A stretch of 64,000 bases of DNA from Candidatus Woesebacteria bacterium (GTDB taxonomy: Bacteria; Patescibacteriota; Microgenomatia; UBA1400; UBA1396). The DNA is taken from assembly GCA_963749595.1 (NCBI GenBank), contig CAVVNJ010000009.1, positions 65,380-129,379 of the forward strand, written 5' to 3'. This document shows, piece after piece, positions 8,924-55,288 of this stretch. A program made the translations under genes and the position numbers. The notes below the pieces were generated by a model that made no database searches, was not told the origin of the DNA, and saw only the letters and a list, made by a program, of their open reading frames with translations. The first letter of the stretch is position 1, and every line of letters begins with the position of its first letter.

Positions 8924-10815
8924 GGTGAGTAATTTACCGTTATATCCGAAAATTGGGGAGTGATGTTAGGATCACTGGAGCTTAGATAGACTTTGTAACG
9001 GAAGCATTGGCCCGGGTTTTGGAAGTTTCCGCTAGTTAGGAGCGGAATTGAGCTGCTGTCATCAAAAAAGGTCTCTGCGGTTCCATCTGGGCCGATAAAT
9101 TGCCAGCTGGCGCCAGCGCAACTGCCCGCGACCGCCGGCGCGACCGCCATTTGGTACCTCACCGAGGTGCCGGCGGGTTCGGATTCGGTGACCCAAAAAC
9201 GGTTAAAAGCGGCAGAATAGCCGGCATCAAAAGTGTTAGATTCAAACGTTCCGGTCGCGGTGGTGCCGCCGCCAAATCCCTCGATAATTTTGAGTTCCGT
9301 ATTGGCGTCACCGGTGATAATATAGCTGTAGGCGTCGCCATCGCTTTCCAAAACCGAGGCCAAGCCGTTGACGCCGGTGTCAATGTTCAGGCTGCCGCAG
9401 GCGGACGGGGAGTTTCATTGGTGATGTCGATGACTTGGTATTCATCGCCGTTGGCTGCCGACAGTGATCGCTTTATTTCCAGGGACCACGGTTACGGAGC
9501 GGGGATTCATGCCATTGGTGTCATAACTGCCGATCACGGGTCGGTCGCCGGTTTTAGATCGATGTGTCAATGATGAAAAACTCTGCTTGCGAACCGGAGG
9601 CGCCGGTGGCCAGATATACTCGGTTGCCGTCGCCGCTGACGAATACGTCCCGACCGCCCTGTCCGGGGACGGACGCTTGCCGACCACCGTCGAGACTGCT
9701 GGGATTGGAGACGTCAATGATCTGCAACTGGGCGCCTGATTGATCGCGATGAAGGCGTGCGAACCGACCACCACGATTCTCCGGCCGTTGCCGGCCAGTC
9801 CGACGCTGCCCAGTTGCGGCCGGCTGCCGGATTTGTGTCGCAGGTTGAAACTGTAAAAGTGTTGCGGTCGGTCATGTAGCTCCGGTATTGCCGGAGACAA
9901 ACACGCTATCTCCTGATCCGGGGCCGGGAGAGTTAAAAGCCCGACTTCGCTGGGCGTGCCGGTGATGTCGAGAATGACGATTTCCTTATTATTCGTGTCC
10001 GTGCCGAGGTAAGCGTAATTCGTTTCGCCAAAAATGGCGTTGGTCTTGAAGCCATTGAAGGTATTAGTAATTGAGGGGATCGGAGGTTTGGTGTCGGTAA
10101 TGTTGATGGTCGCATAAGAAACTCCGGAGGCATTTTCTCCGGTGCCGGCAAAAATCTTGCCCTGAATGGCCGAGATGGCGTTGGCGACGCCGTTTTTGGG
10201 CAGATCCAGCGGGGTAATCTGCAAATTAGGGGCGCACCAGTTGGGGATGGATCCGGAAGCCAAAACTACGGCTCCTCCCCCCGTCGTGGTCACGGAAGTA
10301 TCGTTAGTGGTGCCCCCGCTAAACTCTTCCGTGCTTGATTCTTCTAGGGCATCGTTATCCAAGTAGCGGGTGAAGATCAGCGTGGTGCTAACCTCGGAGG
10401 CAAACGGTGTTGGCCAGCTGACGATGATCAACGTTTTTTTGGTGGAGGGGTCCAGTTGACCACCGTTTTCCACTAGCTGCCCATTTTCATTGCGAAAGGC
10501 CGAAGATACTTGAACCGAACGGGTAAAGCCGGAGATAACTTCCCCGTTGGGCTGAAGCTGCCAAAGGCCATTCACCACAACCGGATGATAAGTTCCGTCC
10601 ACGGCAAAAGTGGTCCAGTTTTGTTCGCGGACGCTGCGCGTGGCTTCCACCGCTTCCTGCATTAGCGCCGTCGCTTGAAGCCGTTGCTGTTGTTGTGCTT
10701 TTCCCTCCCGCGTGGCCACGATACCGGTTAGCAAGGCCGGCATTACCAGCGACGAGACCGCCATGGCGAGCAAGACTTCGATCAGGGTTTGGCCGGACTG
10801 CCAGAATTTTCGCAT
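8920..10815 (-). pseudogene. large pilin-like protein with a predicted beta-propeller (LVIVD-type repeats), disrupted by multiple frameshifts
   Basis: The N-terminus SGQTLIEVLLAMAVSSLVMPALL is pilin-like. From about 9950 down to 9360 the plausible protein jumps frames at least six times. Examples of good sequence in the other frames are DSVFVSGNTGAT, AQLQIIDVSNPSSL...DVFVSGDGNRVYLATGASGSQAEFFIIDTS and NGDEYQVIDITNE. It then rejoins ORF 8920-9363. Confidence 0.7.
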
Positions 10816-25383: not shown

Positions 25384-25524
25384 TGGTACAATTTAACTCG
25401 ATGCAAAACCAAACCTGGCACCTCATGTGTTATTTTTCCACCACCGGGAGGGGCGTGTTTTTGCGGCAGTAAGTAGAAAAAACCAAAAGACAACACCAAC
25501 CTCCTCACTAGGAGGTTTTTTGTT
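25384..25524 (+). promoter_or_regulatory. leader element L1: extended -10 promoter, closing stem, G-rich box and intrinsic terminator upstream of the M20 gene
   Basis: TGgTACAAT (25384-25392). GCAAAA (25403-08) can pair with TTTTGC (25459-64) around CACC...ACCACCGGGAGGGGCGTG. The terminator AACCTCC-tcacta-GGAGGTT plus T6 is at 25498-25524. Confidence 0.45.
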
Positions 25525-27308: not shown

Positions 27309-28554
27309 ATGAAAATCTACAACACTCTAACACAATCGATCGAACCCATTCGCAAGCTAGCGAACGAGGACCAGATCGGGGTGTACGCTTGTGGTCCTAC
27401 CGTCTACGATTACGCGCACATCGGTCACGCGCGCAAGTATACGCTGGACGACGTCTTGATTCGGACTTTGCGGTTGGCTGGTTTTCCGGTGAAACACGTG
27501 ATGAATATCACTGATGTCGGCCAACTGACCTCGGACGCCGATACCGGGGAAGACAAGATGGAAAAAGGCGCCCGTAAATTCGGCAAAACTGTCTGGGAGG
27601 TGGCCGAGTTCTTTGAGGAAGATTTTTGGCGCAAAGCTGATCTGTTGGGTTAAGCACCCCGAGATTGTTGTCGAAAGCCACCGATCACCTCGTGAGCAGA
27701 TCGCGATGGTGAAGAAACTGGAGGACAAGGGCTTCACTTACGAAATTCCTGGTGACGGCATCTATTTTGATACCAGTAAAGACCCGCATTACGGCGAGCT
27801 GGCCCGATTGAAGCTCGATCAACAACTCGAGGGCGCCCGGATCGGCATTACGGAGGGCAAGCGTAATCCCAGCGATTTTGCGTTGTGGAAGTTTTATCCG
27901 GTTGGCGAAAAACATGGAGATGGAATGGGATTCACCGTGGGGCAAAGGTTTTCCCGGTTGGCATATCGAGTGTTCAGCGATGAGTATCAAGTATCTGGGC
28001 GAACAGTTTGCGATCCACACCGGTGGCATTGACCATATTCCGGTTCACCACACTAACGAAATCGCCCAAGCCGAAAACTCTACCGGCAAGCGGCCCTTTG
28101 TCCGTCACTGGGTGCATCATAATTTTTTGCGGGTAGATGGGAAAAAAATGAGCAAGTCGCTCAATAACTTCTATACCCTGGACGACGTGATTGCCAAGGG
28201 ATTTTCGCCGCTGGCGCTAAAACTTTTATTTTTGCAGGCGCACTACCGCGATGAGCTGAATTTTACCTGGAATTCTTTGGCGGGCACCCAAAAGGCCTAC
28301 GAAAAACTGCAACGGCAGGTGGGAAAACTTTTGTCGGCAGCCAGTTACGAAGATCTATCTGAGATACCGGAGCCGGAAGCCGTTAATTTGTCGATGAGCT
28401 TAAGCAGCGGTTGGACGAATTTGTTGGTTATCTGGAAGAAGATCTTAAAACGGCGCAAGCCCTGGCGGTGCTATGGAAGACGGTCAAAGGCTCATCAGTG
28501 GAGGCGCTGCCGGTGATCAAGCGGATGTTCGAATATTTCGGCCTAGCAATCTGA
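27309..28554 (+). pseudogene. cysS: cysteine--tRNA ligase, with multiple apparent frameshifts
   Basis: HIGH motif (YDYAHIGHARKY), [13 protein letters not shown] and KMSKS are all present but spread over frames 0, 1, 2 and 1. Shifts occur near 27645 (G-run), 27918 (A5 run) and 28388 (T-run). A compensating pair near 27675-27700 hides KATDHLV. Confidence 0.88.
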
Positions 28555-28565
28555 AACGAGGTAAA

Positions 28566-29411
28566 GTGAGCGATTTTAAGCTTTTTTCCCACAACGGAAA
28601 AATTTTGCCGGTCAAGGCGGCCAAAGTTTCGCTGTTTAATATCGAATACAGCTATGGTTTCGGCATTTACGAAACGATGAAATTGCGCCATGGACGGCTA
28701 TATTTCGTTGATCAGCACTTGGAGCGATTGTTCCACTCGGCGGCGGTGATCGGAGTCGACATCGGCTATCCGGTGGACCAGATCAACCGGTGGTTGGCGG
28801 AATTGGTCGAAGCCCTGTCAATCGAGGCGGCCAATCTCAAGATTTTGGTGATCGGCGGAAAAGAATCGGCGGTCTATATTTTTGCCAGTGCGCCGCTGTA
28901 TCCGGACAAGAAACTTTATCGTCAGGGGGTGAAACTAATCAGCTATCCCTACGAACGGTTGTTTCCGACGGCCAAGACGCTCAACATGCTGCCGAGTTAT
29001 TTGGCGTATAAAAAGGCGCAGGAAAGTGATTGTTACGATGCTTTGTTGATCGACGCGGAGGGCAACATTCTTGAGGGGACGCGAACGAATTTTTGTTTGG
29101 TGCGCGGTCAAACGATCTACCGCGCGCCGGCGGATCGAGTTTTAGGCGGGGTGACGTTCCTCACCCTGGAGATTGTCGCCAAACGGCTCGGCTGGTCGAT
29201 TGTTGAGCAGTTAGTGCCATTGAAAGAAATCGCCGATTTCGAGGCGGCCTTTGTGACCAGTACGAGCACCAAGATTATGCCGGTTAAGCAGATCGACGAT
29301 CATCTTTTCCCGCCGATTCCGGAACCTATTTTTGCCCTGATCCGGGCTTACGATAATTTTTTGGCGGAGTGCCGGGGCGTCCTGCCGGACGCCCCGGACT
29401 CTTCCGTTTAA
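28566..29411 (+). CDS. class IV (fold-type IV) PLP-dependent aminotransferase / aminodeoxychorismate-lyase-like
   Basis: GTG start after a GAGG RBS. FGIYETMKL...YFVDQHLERL and EGTRTNFCLVRGQTIYRAP fit the BCAT/DAAT family. Confidence 0.7.
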   Translation: MSDFKLFSHNGKILPVKAAKVSLFNIEYSYGFGIYETMKLRHGRLYFVDQHLERLFHSAAVIGVDIGYPVDQINRWLAELVEALSIEAANLKILVIGGKESAVYIFASAPLYPDKKLYRQGVKLISYPYERLFPTAKTLNMLPSYLAYKKAQESDCYDALLIDAEGNILEGTRTNFCLVRGQTIYRAPADRVLGGVTFLTLEIVAKRLGWSIVEQLVPLKEIADFEAAFVTSTSTKIMPVKQIDDHLFPPIPEPIFALIRAYDNFLAECRGVLPDAPDSSV

Positions 29412-30442
29412 CGTCGCCCCGCTTGGGCGATTTGCCACAACGCGTCCACCAATGCCTGGTTATCAGCCCGAGTCTTCAGGCCGACGCGGACATAGTGTTC
29501 GTTCCGGATCCCGTCCGTCCGGTCGAGGTCGACCACCTTGATTCCGCGGGTTGGTAGGAGGTTGGCCAGAGAAAGTTCCCGGTGGCGCACCATGAGGATA
29601 CCGACTTGGGGTTCGCCGCCGATTTCGATTCCTGGTATTCGCCGGATTTCGTTTTTCAACCACGTCAATTCCCGCTCCTGCCAATCAGCGCTGCGGCGCA
29701 AATGATCTAGATCGTCCAGCCCGGCCAGGGCTGCCACCAAACCTTTAGCGGTCGGGGGTTGGATTTCCGCGCGAATCAGGGCTGCGATTTCCGGACGGGC
29801 GAACAACATGCCCACCCGCGCCTCCGGCAAACCGAACGCCTTGGAGAAGGTTTTGGTCACGATTAGATTGGGGTGGCTGGGCACGAGCCGGACTTGTGAT
29901 GCCAGGTTATCCGGATCAACGATCTCCCAATAGGCTTCGTCGACCACTGTCATTCCTGAGCGGTTCCACTCAACGAAGGACCGCAGTACTTTTGGATCCA
30001 CCATTGTCCCGGTCGGGTTGTTGGGATTGCAGACCCAAACTAGCGAACCACTTGTCCGATCGTCTCGCGGTAAAGAAATTTGCTTGATTCCAGGCAGGGG
30101 CGTGACTGGCACCTGATTGGTCTCAACCGCTTCGGCAATGTGGAAGTAAGTTGGTACGGGAATTGCTACTTTCGGCCAGAGTGGGGCGATCAGTTTGGCG
30201 ATGGCGTCAATCAAACAATCGCTGCCCGCCGAGACGACAATTATCTCCGATGGTACGCCCAACCATTCCGACAACCGAAGGGTTAATTCCTTGAGCAATC
30301 GTTCTTGGTCGCTTGGGTGCTCAGCGTAACGCGCCAGCCGTTCCGCCACCAACGGACTGGGCCCGAGCGGATTACCGACAATGCCGAAATCAAGTTCGCG
30401 CCTTTCCGGTTTACGCTCCGGTTGTAATTTTTCGTTTTTCAT
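29408..30442 (-). CDS. class I/II PLP-dependent aminotransferase (HisC-like)
   Basis: VCNPNNPTG and the TKTFSKAFGLPEARVG (PLP-lysine) motifs. The start overlaps the stop of the upstream GNAT gene. Confidence 0.75.
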   Translation of the reverse strand: MKNEKLQPERKPERRELDFGIVGNPLGPSPLVAERLARYAEHPSDQERLLKELTLRLSEWLGVPSEIIVVSAGSDCLIDAIAKLIAPLWPKVAIPVPTYFHIAEAVETNQVPVTPLPGIKQISLPRDDRTSGSLVWVCNPNNPTGTMVDPKVLRSFVEWNRSGMTVVDEAYWEIVDPDNLASQVRLVPSHPNLIVTKTFSKAFGLPEARVGMLFARPEIAALIRAEIQPPTAKGLVAALAGLDDLDHLRRSADWQERELTWLKNEIRRIPGIEIGGEPQVGILMVRHRELSLANLLPTRGIKVVDLDRTDGIRNEHYVRVGLKTRADNQALVDALWQIAQAGRR

Positions 30443-31018
30443 CTTACCTCCTTATTTTTTGGCGGCCGGATCATCACCGCCGCGCTGTGTCCAGGCCGCA
30501 ATTTTTGTTTGACGACCTCGGCGATTGCCGGATCAATAGCCAATAATTCCTCGGTGCTGGCCTCCACGAAACCCAGTCTTCGGAAAATCGTTCGTGCTAC
30601 CGTGATCGTGAAACAACCATCTTCCGCGGGCAGGGAGTGGATCGCCTGTTGTAGCAGTGACTGTAAAATTTCTCCACCCTGATGCCGACGACTGGGGTGG
30701 ACGACTCCATGGTTGAAGTAGTGCCAAGTTGCTCCTGATCCCCGGAACGGCAAAATCGTGTGGCCGGCCAGAACCTCTCCCTTGGTATCAATGGACGCCC
30801 AAACCGACCCTCCCCTTGAAGAGAAAGTCATTAGTTCCTCTGGCGTGAGATCGCGAATCAGGCCGCCGTTAGAGATGAATTCCGGCTGCAGTAGTCGGTG
30901 TAGTGCGAAGATAGCGGGAAAGTCCATTAAAACACATGGGATAGGTGGGATTAAACCCTGCCTCCAGGGCCTGCGGAATTAGGTTGGTTGGTTTTGGTGG
31001 TAAGAGTTCAATGCTCAT
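30439..31018 (-). pseudogene. GNAT family N-acetyltransferase, with a probable N-terminal frameshift near 30925
   Basis: A strong RBS (AAAGGAG) plus ATG at 31018 opens a 49-codon ORF (MSIELLPPKPTNLIPQALEAGFNPTYPMCFN...). It runs into the 30439-30927 GNAT ORF in another frame. Removing one G from AATGGAC fuses the two. Confidence 0.6.
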
Positions 31019-31039
31019 AGCCACTCCTTTCTTTTGCAT

Positions 31040-31183
31040 AAAAAAACCTCCGGGTTGGCGGAGGTTCGGATTGGTGTATTGATAAATTCTTTTACAACCG
31101 CCGAACCTCCCTGGTTAAATTAAAGGAATAAAAGCGACACATGATTTGGTGAACGGTTGGGTTCATTGCCACTAATTGTAGCA
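31040..31183 (-). promoter_or_regulatory. leader element L3: extended -10 promoter, closing stem, G-rich box with a perfect 10-bp antiterminator, and a terminator upstream of the GNAT-aminotransferase pair
   Basis: Read on the minus strand. TGcTACAAT is at 31183-31175. CAACCG (31159-54) can pair with CGGTTG (31100-095). GGAGGTTCGG (31110-01) is the exact complement of CCGAACCTCC (31069-60), which is also the 5' half of the terminator CCTCCG-ccaacc-CGGAGG plus U7 (31064-31040). Confidence 0.5.
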
Positions 31184-54113: not shown

Positions 54114-54279
54114 TTTCACAAGAGCGGCGACGTGGTGTATAATGTCGCCAATGGCATTGGAAAACACTCACCACCAGGCTTGGTATTACACCTTAACCAG
54201 GGGGGTGCGGTTTCTGATGGGCTAAAAAAATAAAAGCATGAGTCAGGCCAAACCTCCCAGATGGGAGGTTTTTTGTTTT
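54114..54279 (+). promoter_or_regulatory. leader element L2: promoter, hairpins, G-rich box and intrinsic terminator upstream of the nucleoside-salvage operon (alternatively a ~130-nt sRNA)
   Basis: TTCACA, an 18-nt spacer, then TATAAT (54138-43). The hairpin CCAATG-gc-CATTGG is followed by CACCACC...ACCAGGGGGGTGCGGTTTC. The terminator AACCTCCC-agat-GGGAGGTT plus TTTTGTTTT is at 54251-54279. Confidence 0.5.
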
Positions 54280-54297: not shown

Positions 54298-55288
54298 ATG
54301 CCGGAAAAATTAAAAAATATTTTATGGATGGGAGAAGAACTCGATTTTGAGCTTCGGCCCGATGCCAAAGCGGAGGCAAAAGCATTGATTGCTCGCTTTC
54401 TGCGGCTGACCGCCAACCCGACTTTGTCCCACTGGCTTTATTGAGCCAACACAGAATATCCCCAAACTTAAATCTCAGATCGAAACTCGACATCATCGCC
54501 AGCCATTCACTTTTGTTGTCGATCTAGCCCGCGGTCCTTTGATTCGAGCCCTTGCTTGTCTGGACCAAGTCCCGCATTGGACCGGATTTTCCATGGGTCG
54601 TATTCGGGAAGTCAGTAGTATCGATCTTCCCACCAGTGGTCATATGCTCAGTCACAATCTAGAGGAAATACGAGCGCTCTTGGCGAACCAAGACCTAAGC
54701 AATATCTTGGTTTTAGATGACACCTCTTTTTCCGGATCGACCTCATTGATTTTCGAGAAACTATTGCGAGCGGCGTTCTCCGAGAAGAAGATGGATTTCA
54801 CGCATGGTTTCTTGATTCTCAACCAGGGAAAGCTTGGCAGCAACCCAGGTGCCAAAGAAAGACTCGGAGCAAAGGCTTTTGGTGGTCGGGAAATGGTTAC
54901 TCCTAAGGATGATGGCTGGCACTTTTTCGATTTAGTGAAGCAAGGAGACATTGCCAACCACCTATTGGTACTAAGTGAAATTCTTAAGCTTATTGGTCGG
55001 CCAAACTTCCCCCAATTGGCAAATGCCATTTTAGCCGACGAAAAAACGCTACGGTTAATGTTTCCTCAGGTGATTACCGCTCGAGAAATATTGGAATTAC
55101 AATCAACCGGTCATTTTATCGGCCAGCTGAAAACGGAAGGCGGGTTTCAGGTTCGGAACCCCCAATTGTTGCCCAATATAATTGGTCAAAAACACTTATT
55201 GCCGCCCAGCGAGTGGCGAGGGGATCGGGATGAGGTTTTTGAGCTGTTGCTTGCGTTGAATCAACTATTAGCGAAAGGATCGCGATGA
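54298..55288 (+). pseudogene. phosphoribosyltransferase-like protein, with a probable N-terminal frameshift near 54410-54444
   Basis: Type I PRT motif NILVLDDTSFSGST. The main ORF (54539 TTG) has no RBS, but its frame is open back to 54410. There it overlaps a 48-codon ORF that has a good RBS/ATG at 54298. Confidence 0.45.

Follow-up and report, generated by a model that had tools for sequence, protein, structure and literature searches.

The leaders and the genes behind them

A 64,000-nucleotide stretch of Candidatus Woesebacteria DNA (contig CAVVNJ010000009.1 of assembly GCA_963749595.1), referred to here as the window, contains three similar leader regions, L1, L2 and L3, each of which runs from a -10 promoter box to a terminator and appears to be an attenuator of the unit behind it. 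L1 precedes a gene for an M20 metallopeptidase/deacylase, L2 an operon for a phosphoribosyltransferase (PRTase)-like protein (protein X), a HAD hydrolase and a nucleoside hydrolase, and L3 the genes for a weakly GNAT-like protein and an aminotransferase (Table 1). An earlier note on this DNA had described the three as one conserved attenuator class of riboswitch-like layout.

Direct reading and alignment of the loci confirmed the sequence features that the note lists, all at the positions given there. The -10 boxes of L1, L2 and L3 are present where the note had placed them, and the CACC element, the A-rich linker and the ACCTCC-loop-GGAGGTTT terminator with its U-run occur at all three loci, the terminators having stems of 7-9 bp, loops of 4-6 nt and at least five U. 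The shared G-rich box (G-box) ACCRGGGRGG is exact in L2 (ACCAGGGGGG, 54196-54205) and L3 (ACCAGGGAGG, 31115-31106) but has one deviation in L1 (ACCGGGAGGG, 25443-25452). The segments proposed to form a closing stem are complementary (GCAAAA/TTTTGC in L1, CAACCG/CGGTTG in L3 and GAAAAC/GGTTTC in L2), but the stem in the window copies is no more stable than in shuffled sequences. Terminators of the ACCUCC-loop-GGAGGU type are limited to L1, L2 and L3 in the window, where 0.01 would be expected (the pattern search returned four hits, two of them being both strands of L2). The 10-mer box alone is not over-represented, with 17 matches at no more than one mismatch in the window versus 16 expected.

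Among the gene products, the M20 peptidase, the HAD hydrolase, the inosine-uridine nucleoside hydrolase and the class I/II aminotransferase were confirmed with Pfam. The label GNAT is weak (E=0.033). The label PRTase holds for protein X at the level of fold only: no Pfam domain was found in it, but its AlphaFold model (predicted local distance difference test score, pLDDT, 85) has HGPRT and purine PRTases as best matches in the PDB, with E about 1e-4. An exact sequence look-up of the window nucleoside hydrolase returned no record.

Table 1. Features of the three window leaders, genes behind them and Phe-run leaders of relatives. Leader peptides are given up to their stop codon; functional roles of segments are predicted.
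Feature	Positions	Strand	Remarks
L2 -10 box TATAAT	54138-54143	+	7-nt spacer, then ATG
L2 leader ORF MALENTHHQAWYYTLTRGVRFLMG	54151-54225	+	ATG 54151; 24 codons plus stop
L2 putative regulatory codons His7 His8 ... Trp11 Tyr12 Tyr13	54169-54189	+	
L2 G-box ACCAGGGGGGUGC, segment 2, putative antiterminator strand	54196-54208	+	pairs with terminator 5' arm
L2 intrinsic terminator AACCUCCC-AGAU-GGGAGGUU plus U-run, segments 3:4	54251-54279	+	
L1 extended -10 box TGgTACAAT	25384-25392	+	8-nt spacer, then ATG
L1 leader ORF MQNQTWHLMCYFSTTGRGVFLRQ	25401-25472	+	ATG 25401; Trp6 His7 ... Cys10 Tyr11 Phe12 at 25416-25436
L1 G-box ACCGGGAGGGGC, segment 2	25443-25454	+	
L1 terminator AACCUCCU-CACU-AGGAGGUU plus U-run	25498-25523	+	
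L3 extended -10 box TGcTACAAT	31175-31183	-	8-nt spacer, then ATG
L3 leader ORF MNPTVHQIMCRFYSFNLTREVRRL	31092-31166	-	ATG 31166; His6, Met9 Cys10, Phe12 Tyr13 Phe15; no Trp
L3 G-box ACCAGGGAGGUU, segment 2	31104-31115	-	
L3 terminator GAACCUCCG-CCAACC-CGGAGGUUU plus U-run	31038-31067	-	
M20 (ArgE/DapE-type) metallopeptidase/deacylase, behind L1	25538-26641	+	Pfam; below all equivalog cut-offs
First ORF after L2 terminator (MPEKLKNILWMGEELDF...), SD-led, 48 aa	54298-54444	+	conserved in 8 genomes; overlaps next gene, other frame
Protein X, 292 codons open	54410-55288	+	no canonical start before 54539; N-terminal ~165 residues type I PRTase fold
HAD hydrolase, weakly pyrimidine 5'-nucleotidase-like, behind L2	55285-55956	+	
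Inosine-uridine nucleoside hydrolase, RihC/RihA-like, behind L2	55953-56876	+	299 bits to Pfam IU_nuc_hydro
162-aa weakly GNAT-like protein, behind L3	30927-30439	-	
HisC/CobD-subfamily class I/II aminotransferase, behind L3	30442-29408	-	
Phe-codon-run small ORF, leaderless type (FFFF, FFSFFF, GFFFNF; also the next five rows), L022	2772-2877		
Phe-run ORF, L013	1892-1998		
Phe-run ORF, L040	5807-5915		
Phe-run ORF, L042	7119-7227		
Phe-run ORFs, L048	9385-9441; 11067-11117	-	
Phe-run ORF, L050	8619-8731		

A small open reading frame at the start of each leader

The earlier note overlooked a small open reading frame (ORF) that starts with ATG 7-8 nt after the -10 box in every leader. It has 23-24 codons in the window and 15-28 codons in all of the 43 leaders that we collected from the window and related Patescibacteria; these leaders are related by descent, so that counts over them are not fully independent. 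The ATG lies 7-9 nt 3' of the best -10 hexamer in 39 of 42 leaders, and 22 have the TGn extension. One relative (L156) uses GTG in the same position. No Shine-Dalgarno (SD)-like motif was found 5' of the leader ATG in any of the 43. This spacing after the -10 box, together with the lack of an SD motif, leads us to infer a leaderless mRNA, with transcription probably starting at or next to the A of the leader ATG. Conversely, when terminators of the CCUCC..GGAGG-U type were taken from 70 loci of relatives plus the window, 27 of 35 carried such an ORF.

A further test was designed to avoid preselection for ATG. It started from near-consensus -10 hexamers lying up to 200 nt 5' of these terminators and found an ATG at +5 to +9 after the hexamer in 29 of 59 cases, compared with a genome-wide background of 11.8% (p=2e-12).

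The frame set by the ATG is distinct from the other two. It is open for at least 15 codons in 43/43 leaders, versus 10/43 and 14/43 for the alternatives, and it holds 75 CAY codons (5 and 18 in the other frames), 31 UGG codons (2 and 4) and 33 UAY codons (1 and 14). Over codons 4-16, His amounts to 16.1% and Trp to 6.7%, which is 11-fold and 6-fold more than in the long ORFs of the window (1.5% and 1.05%). His is encoded by both CAC and CAT, and Trp stands at codon 11 in most leaders. The GGAGG box, by contrast with these codons, is read in all three frames (e.g., ACC AGG GAG GTT, GGG AGG GGC and GGA GGT); it is therefore an RNA-level element and not conserved as peptide.

Alternative pairing of the G-box

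The note had also claimed that the GGGAGG box can pair with the CCTCC half of the terminator, and this is the case in all three leaders, L3 forming 10 contiguous pairs. The duplex energies are -20.3 kcal/mol in L3, -17.2 in L2 and -13.1 in L1. Across the family, duplexes between the box and the terminator 5' arm have a mean energy of -14.5 kcal/mol and a mean z of -3.5 relative to shuffled box regions, and the cognate arm is better than the arms of other subfamilies in 31 of 35 leaders. The subfamilies differ in sequence and share one layout. As read from the sequences, box and arm are GGGAGG and CCUCCC in class 1, GCGGAG and CUCCGC in class 1b, and CGAAGGGGGU and ACACCCUUCG in class 2 (Saccharibacteria-type); other matched pairs are UGAAGGG/CCCUUCA and GGGGAG/CUCCCC. 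A matched change is illustrated by L041, CGAAGGG/CCCUUCG versus UGAAGGG/CCCUUCA. The G-box and the terminator 5' arm are thus pairing partners whose sequences change in step from one subfamily to the next. Pairing of box and arm (2:3) and formation of the terminator (3:4) are mutually exclusive, as in an attenuator.

The box has a second potential partner upstream. Together with the U/G-rich stretch that follows it, it can form a helix with the C-rich stretch of His codons and with the A-rich codons at the start of the ORF (segment 1), and this 1:2 pairing is what had been described as the closing stem. In the minimum free energy structure of L2, CAC CAC C of segment 1 also pairs with GGUG located 3' of the G-box. 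The predicted 1:2 structure is strong in many relatives (e.g., L008, L010, L014 and L051), and family-wide it has a mean z of -1.07 (p=3.5e-5).

The last His/Trp codon, measured from its first base, lies a median of 17 nt (interquartile range 14-18) before the first base of the box that pairs. Median distances are 8 nt from the end of the box to the stop codon and 39 nt from the box to the terminator arm. This geometry fits the trp/his attenuation model, in which a ribosome stalled in the codon cluster leaves the box free and a ribosome at the stop codon covers it.

Relatives and sister leaders

Homologues of the M20 protein were found in metagenome-assembled genomes (MAGs) of Patescibacteria, also called the Candidate Phyla Radiation (CPR), of Woesebacteria, Microgenomates, Saccharibacteria and Paceibacteria type. 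In about 30 of 70 genome loci anchored on this protein, a leader lies directly 5' of M20. As the earlier note had proposed, the three window loci are members of a single conserved attenuator family, whose G-rich box and terminator 3' half compete for the terminator 5' half, and relatives carry the family before the same genes. An L2-type leader precedes the PRTase-like/HAD/nucleoside-hydrolase operon in seven genomes: L010, L012 and L154-L158, the last five being those of six further loci with X homologues in which it stands before X-HAD-nucleoside hydrolase. The peptides of these L2-type relatives are MQSKNMHYHSWYYASTRRCVFLMR, MQINNMHHYAWYYTLTGRCSFLVQ, the GTG-started QVSNTYHHVWYYTPVGGACL, MQQSSMHFYHWYGSPAGGACL and MRKALTHLHSYHYHHVGGVY.

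For the 162-aa GNAT-like protein a single homologue was detectable, and it lies in the same gene pair behind an L3-type leader (L151) consisting of TAGAAT, 9 nt and then the ORF MEKAGQSHKYYKFSASLITGGGLSAV, with the box GGGAGGAGGG and the terminator ACCUUCCG-GAAA-CGGGAGGU. Both leaders of this HisC-type aminotransferase operon contain His plus Tyr/Phe and no Trp. HisC-type enzymes have a known His/aromatic range, which this codon choice would fit (n=2). When metagenomes were scanned with the aminotransferase, all matches were distant HisC-like proteins of unrelated organisms, with identities of 38% at most, and the scan was of no use for judging L3 conservation.

Sister leaders and the genes behind them lend independent support. 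A leader with a run of Phe codons, MFTNKYFTGFFFNFQK, lies directly 5' of pheS-pheT (L022), and a leader of the His/Trp type, MNKSFWSHHTYFNHSFGRV, precedes hisS and then M20 (L021), this hisS passing the TIGR00442 cut-off with 349.9 versus 286.75. Further partners of His/Trp-type leaders are HAD-M20-nucleoside hydrolase (L010), X-HAD-nucleoside hydrolase-M20 as a single operon (L012), low-molecular-weight phosphatase-M20 (L014, L051) and amino-acid racemase-M20 (L023). Other Phe-run leaders read MTLISNRFFFFTF.., M..FFSFFF.. and ..SIFFFFM.., and in other CPR genomes such ORFs are followed by terminators of the GGGAG/CUCCC type. One of them precedes a pyridoxal phosphate-dependent decarboxylase and another an 85-aa ORF plus argS; the genes downstream of the Phe-run leaders in L013, L040, L042 and L048a gave no identification.

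Two observations on these sister leaders may be added. A tRNA-Phe gene (L048, 9113-9186, + strand) adjoins and converges on the Phe-run leader at 9441-9385 (- strand), which may be coincidence. A Tyr-rich leader of the same architecture, MIAKSIFASVYYASYTKAEVAMYC (L003, about 9724-9830, - strand), is found before a 374-aa protein, in which no Pfam domains were detected, and a second M20 paralogue.

Proposed ribosome-mediated attenuation and its alternatives

We propose that these leaders are transcription attenuators of the trp/his/phe-leader type that are operated by the translating ribosome on a leaderless mRNA, a reading to which we assign a probability of about 0.74. Transcription would begin on the A of the ATG or no more than one or two bases away from it, the ATG lying 7-8 nt 3' of a -10 box that is often extended. 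A ribosome would initiate directly on the 5' AUG and translate the leader ORF of 15-28 codons. The cluster would span codons ~6-15, in which His and Trp abound and are joined by Tyr/Phe and, in some leaders, by Cys/Met. Segment 2 (the G-rich box), ~17 nt 3' of the last His/Trp codon, could choose between segment 1 upstream and the CCUCC arm (segment 3) downstream. When charged tRNAs are plentiful, the ribosome would reach the stop codon and cover the box, the 3:4 terminator would form and transcription would stop. At a hungry codon in the cluster, the ribosome would stall and mask segment 1, the box would pair with segment 3 and, no terminator being formed, transcription would read through into the operon. 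If the leader were not translated at all, 1:2 would form and termination would again follow. The three units of the window, with hisS and the other partners in relatives, would then make up a ribosome-sensed salvage regulon in an organism that, as a CPR bacterium, is presumed unable to make these amino acids. As for what is sensed, supply of His-tRNA and Trp-tRNA, perhaps also of Tyr- and Phe-tRNA, is the most likely candidate, with odds that we see as about even.

Several points weigh against this proposal. The whole case is computational, and because the leader set was partly gathered by eye or with filters that depended on ATG and on the -10 box, some of the statistics depend in part on the hypothesis. 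The cluster of regulatory codons is a short mixture, with one His each in L1 and L3 and none in L008 and L010, and is weaker than the 7 His of E. coli hisL. The fixed Trp at codon 11 and the well-conserved Saccharibacteria-type peptide (NNWHHxH..EGG) are not required by a pure hungry-codon model. The 1:2 anti-antiterminator of the three window copies equals shuffled controls (z -0.2 to -1.6, and about 0 in a second test). The model also gives no reason why a nucleoside/nucleotide salvage operon should answer to the supply of His and Trp. Finally, the classic signature of coding selection is missing, as no excess of substitutions at third codon positions was observed. This is expected for leader peptides but is not positive evidence, and the test is uninformative because the sequences are saturated and constrained by RNA pairing. 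The claim that the ORF is translated consequently stands on the evidence of start site, frame and codons, and the leader peptide sequence in itself shows no sign of ordinary protein selection.

A nascent-peptide sensor would explain some of what the hungry-codon model leaves over. Here a His/Trp/aromatic peptide (HHxxWYF, NNWHHxH) would arrest in the exit tunnel, the stall freeing the box for antitermination. The cue could be a small molecule, for instance an amino acid in free form, like the tryptophan sensed by TnaC, or something else. TnaC itself, which has a conserved Trp at a fixed position, stalls at its own stop codon and governs Rho-dependent termination. The CPR leaders resemble it in the short ORF, the Trp at a fixed position and the predicted control of downstream transcription; they differ in having an intrinsic terminator/antiterminator pair, and there is no evidence in them of peptide-level selection or of a Rho site. 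Trp is kept at codon 11 in most class 1 and in all 12 class 2 leaders despite large divergence, and the peptides of class 2 show good conservation among MAGs of Saccharibacteria and Paceibacteria type. In addition, the cluster is a mixture of amino acids and not a repeat of one, and the genes under predicted control do not serve the biosynthesis of any one amino acid. However, synonymous changes are not in excess over non-synonymous ones, much of what looks like conservation of the peptide falls on strands engaged in RNA pairing, and several members lack Trp or have one His only. Moreover, plain Phe runs before pheST and a His-rich leader before hisS fit sensing by hungry codons. We regard a nascent-peptide sensor of this kind as improbable.

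The riboswitch suggested by the earlier note fares worse. According to it, the region between closing stem and G-box would be a metabolite aptamer whose ligand decides between sequestration of the box and antitermination, the ORF being incidental. The long-range helix that encloses the box and differs in sequence between copies, the conserved UGGUAUU, CACC and ACC..GGGAGG nucleotides, and a terminator/antiterminator layout typical of expression platforms are what one would look for in such an RNA. Nevertheless, the supposed aptamer bases are in-frame CAY (His), UGG (Trp) and UAY (Tyr) codons of a frame that is always open and starts with a fixed ATG at the predicted transcription start, and the only conserved element independent of frame is the GGAGG box, i.e., the antiterminator strand. 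Leaders of identical architecture, before pheST, have an unrelated "aptamer" consisting of runs of Phe codons. The folding energy of the window leaders is not different from that of shuffled sequence (z -0.2 to -1.6). RNAalifold on a MAFFT alignment of 17 class 1 leaders gave only three pairs and no consensus aptamer, a near-absence of structure attributable to the poor alignment; for class 2 it predicted a hairpin around the box, in which compensatory changes were few. With the aptamer bases accounted for as codons, the box independent of frame, Phe-run leaders in existence and folding like that of shuffles, the sensor is most likely the translating ribosome, and a ligand-binding RNA appears very unlikely.

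Rfam gave the same picture, in keeping with the earlier note, which named no matching riboswitch consensus. At gathering score, Rfam 15 found only a tRNA in the window, and 11 loci of relatives likewise gave no match to a riboswitch or leader family. In a permissive scan (E<=10) of the three leaders, Phe_leader (RF01859), which is itself a family of leader-peptide attenuators, was the best match in all, with 24.8, 24.1 and 18.6 bits versus a gathering score of 55, and Leu_leader (RF00512) reached 14.9 bits versus 50; no hit to His_leader or Trp_leader was obtained at this threshold. These sub-threshold matches are driven by the terminator. A ZTP-like core and a T-box were considered and rejected for the reasons that speak against a riboswitch.

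Control by a trans-acting RNA-binding protein of the PyrR, TRAP or HutP kind, which would pick the hairpin, has a candidate in protein X, a possible PyrR-like factor given its type I PRTase fold, with PyrR structures among its weaker PDB matches (ranks 41 and 43). The Rfam PyrR site (RF00515) matches L3 only, at 17.1 bits, which is far below its gathering score of 54; the alignment covers mainly the terminator, and the PyrR site was rejected. No (G/U)AG-type repeats were noticed on reading the sequences, although no systematic search was made, and no X is seen near the M20 leader in many genomes. Such a protein would leave the fixed leaderless ATG, the open frame and the frame-specific codons unexplained, and we give it hardly any credence. 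Equally implausible is that there is no switch, i.e., that functional micropeptides or chance ORFs lie next to ordinary partial terminators and the complementarity is that of a G-rich SD-like sequence: the chance-level frequency of the box alone and of 1:2 pairing in the window would agree with it, but generic GGAGG terminators were rejected since this terminator type is almost confined to these leaders and box and arm co-vary between subfamilies, with cognate pairs more stable in 31/35, and the arrangement is conserved before orthologous operons across several CPR lineages.

Known leader peptides and significance

Leaderless starts occur in Corynebacterium glutamicum attenuators. Our literature searches turned up no account of leader peptides or attenuators in CPR/Patescibacteria. 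Because leaderless leader peptides have precedents, we see the CPR leaders as a new family of a known attenuator type and not as a new class of RNA sensor.

In the classical attenuators (E. coli trpL, hisL, pheL and pheST), a short ORF with clustered codons is combined with three alternative hairpins, and the position of the ribosome decides between them (PMC11802643). The CPR leaders share the clustered codons, the predicted 2:3 and 3:4 hairpins with a putative 1:2 hairpin, and synthetase targets, pheST and here also hisS (L021). Unlike the E. coli leaders, they have no SD motif and probably no 5' untranslated region, have a short cluster of mixed His, Trp and Tyr/Phe codons, are not matched by the Rfam leader models, and target salvage and hydrolase genes instead of biosynthetic operons.

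The closest aromatic-codon attenuators are C. glutamicum trpL and aroR (Phe-Tyr-Phe); in aroR, a leader peptide of mixed aromatic codons sets transcription readthrough by ribosome stalling (PMC11802643). The CPR leaders are similar to aroR in their mixed aromatic codons. They differ from trpL and aroR in phylum and targets, in the dominance of His and Trp, and in a GGGAGG/CCUCCC box-terminator pair that is characteristic of the CPR clade.

Leaderless small ORFs with polycysteine runs in mycobacteria sense the amino acid by ribosome pausing and coordinate several operons (bioRxiv 10.1101/834739). This Cys "ribulon" has in common with the CPR leaders short leaderless ORFs and a ribosome-directed regulon, predicted in our case. 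The mycobacterial ORFs, however, control translation by unmasking a downstream ribosome-binding site, whereas the terminator and U-run of the CPR leaders point to transcription termination, and the CPR cluster is one of His/Trp/aromatic codons and not of Cys.

Very little is known of gene regulation in Patescibacteria, which are uncultivated or epibiotic and have small genomes. Our results suggest that CPR bacteria use the oldest sensor known at the RNA level, a ribosome that translates a leader peptide, in a leaderless form that would control salvage enzymes and aminoacyl-tRNA synthetases instead of biosynthetic operons. If this is true, gene function could be read from leader codon content, and the widespread CPR M20 deacylase would be linked to His/aromatic supply because it shares its leader, and sometimes its operon, with hisS. 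The leaders also predict promoter and transcription-start positions in a clade with almost no transcript mapping. Conserved "riboswitch-like" leaders deserve a check for small ORFs before being filed as new RNA classes.

A bolder proposal is that the His/Trp/aromatic leaders with Trp at codon 11 are a new nascent-chain sensor family and form, with the Phe-, Tyr- and His-run leaders, a CPR-wide ribosome-directed regulon. We think this unlikely. If true, the regulon could serve these reduced genomes as a substitute for transcription factors or stringent control that they lack, and the salvage of peptides, amino acids and nucleosides would be linked through it to aminoacyl-tRNA supply.

Frame junctions and neighbouring genes

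The 48-aa product of the first ORF in the L2 operon has the peptide pattern MPEqLqNILWMGEELDF...ANPxLSHWLY (window 54298-54520; L012 3385-3640; L154-L159 upstream of X). The body of X (..GFIEPxxNxPxL..) continues in the +1 frame across an invariant [C/G]UU UAU in 8/8 independent genomes. The frame of X lacks a canonical start in most genomes, where stops close it a few codons further 5'. The junction is either a programmed +1 frameshift, in which the CUU-U slip resembles that of prfB, or termination-reinitiation on AUU/AUC, and as it is conserved it is not an assembly error. Under the bolder proposal made above, which we think unlikely, this junction, conserved in eight genomes, might give the L2 operon another layer of control, at the level of translation, in its first gene.

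A 49-aa ORF after the L3 terminator (30869-31018, - strand) overlaps the 162-aa GNAT-like ORF (30439-30927, - strand) in another frame. In the single homologue (P0122, 183 aa) there is one continuous ORF, and nothing in the 162-aa ORF corresponds to its first 34 residues. A frameshift is possible, either a real one or one due to an assembly error. The assembly does have indel problems: cysS, for cysteinyl-tRNA synthetase (27309-28516, + strand), is split into three overlapping ORFs that match positions 5-89, 93-178 and 173-298 of the Pfam catalytic-domain profile, and the two frameshifts in this essential gene are most likely indel errors of this MAG.

A gene resembling D-amino-acid/branched-chain aminotransferases (28473-29411, + strand) converges on the L3 operon. 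Together with the racemase-M20 pair in L023, it is a hint of D-amino-acid or N-acyl-amino-acid salvage around the regulon.

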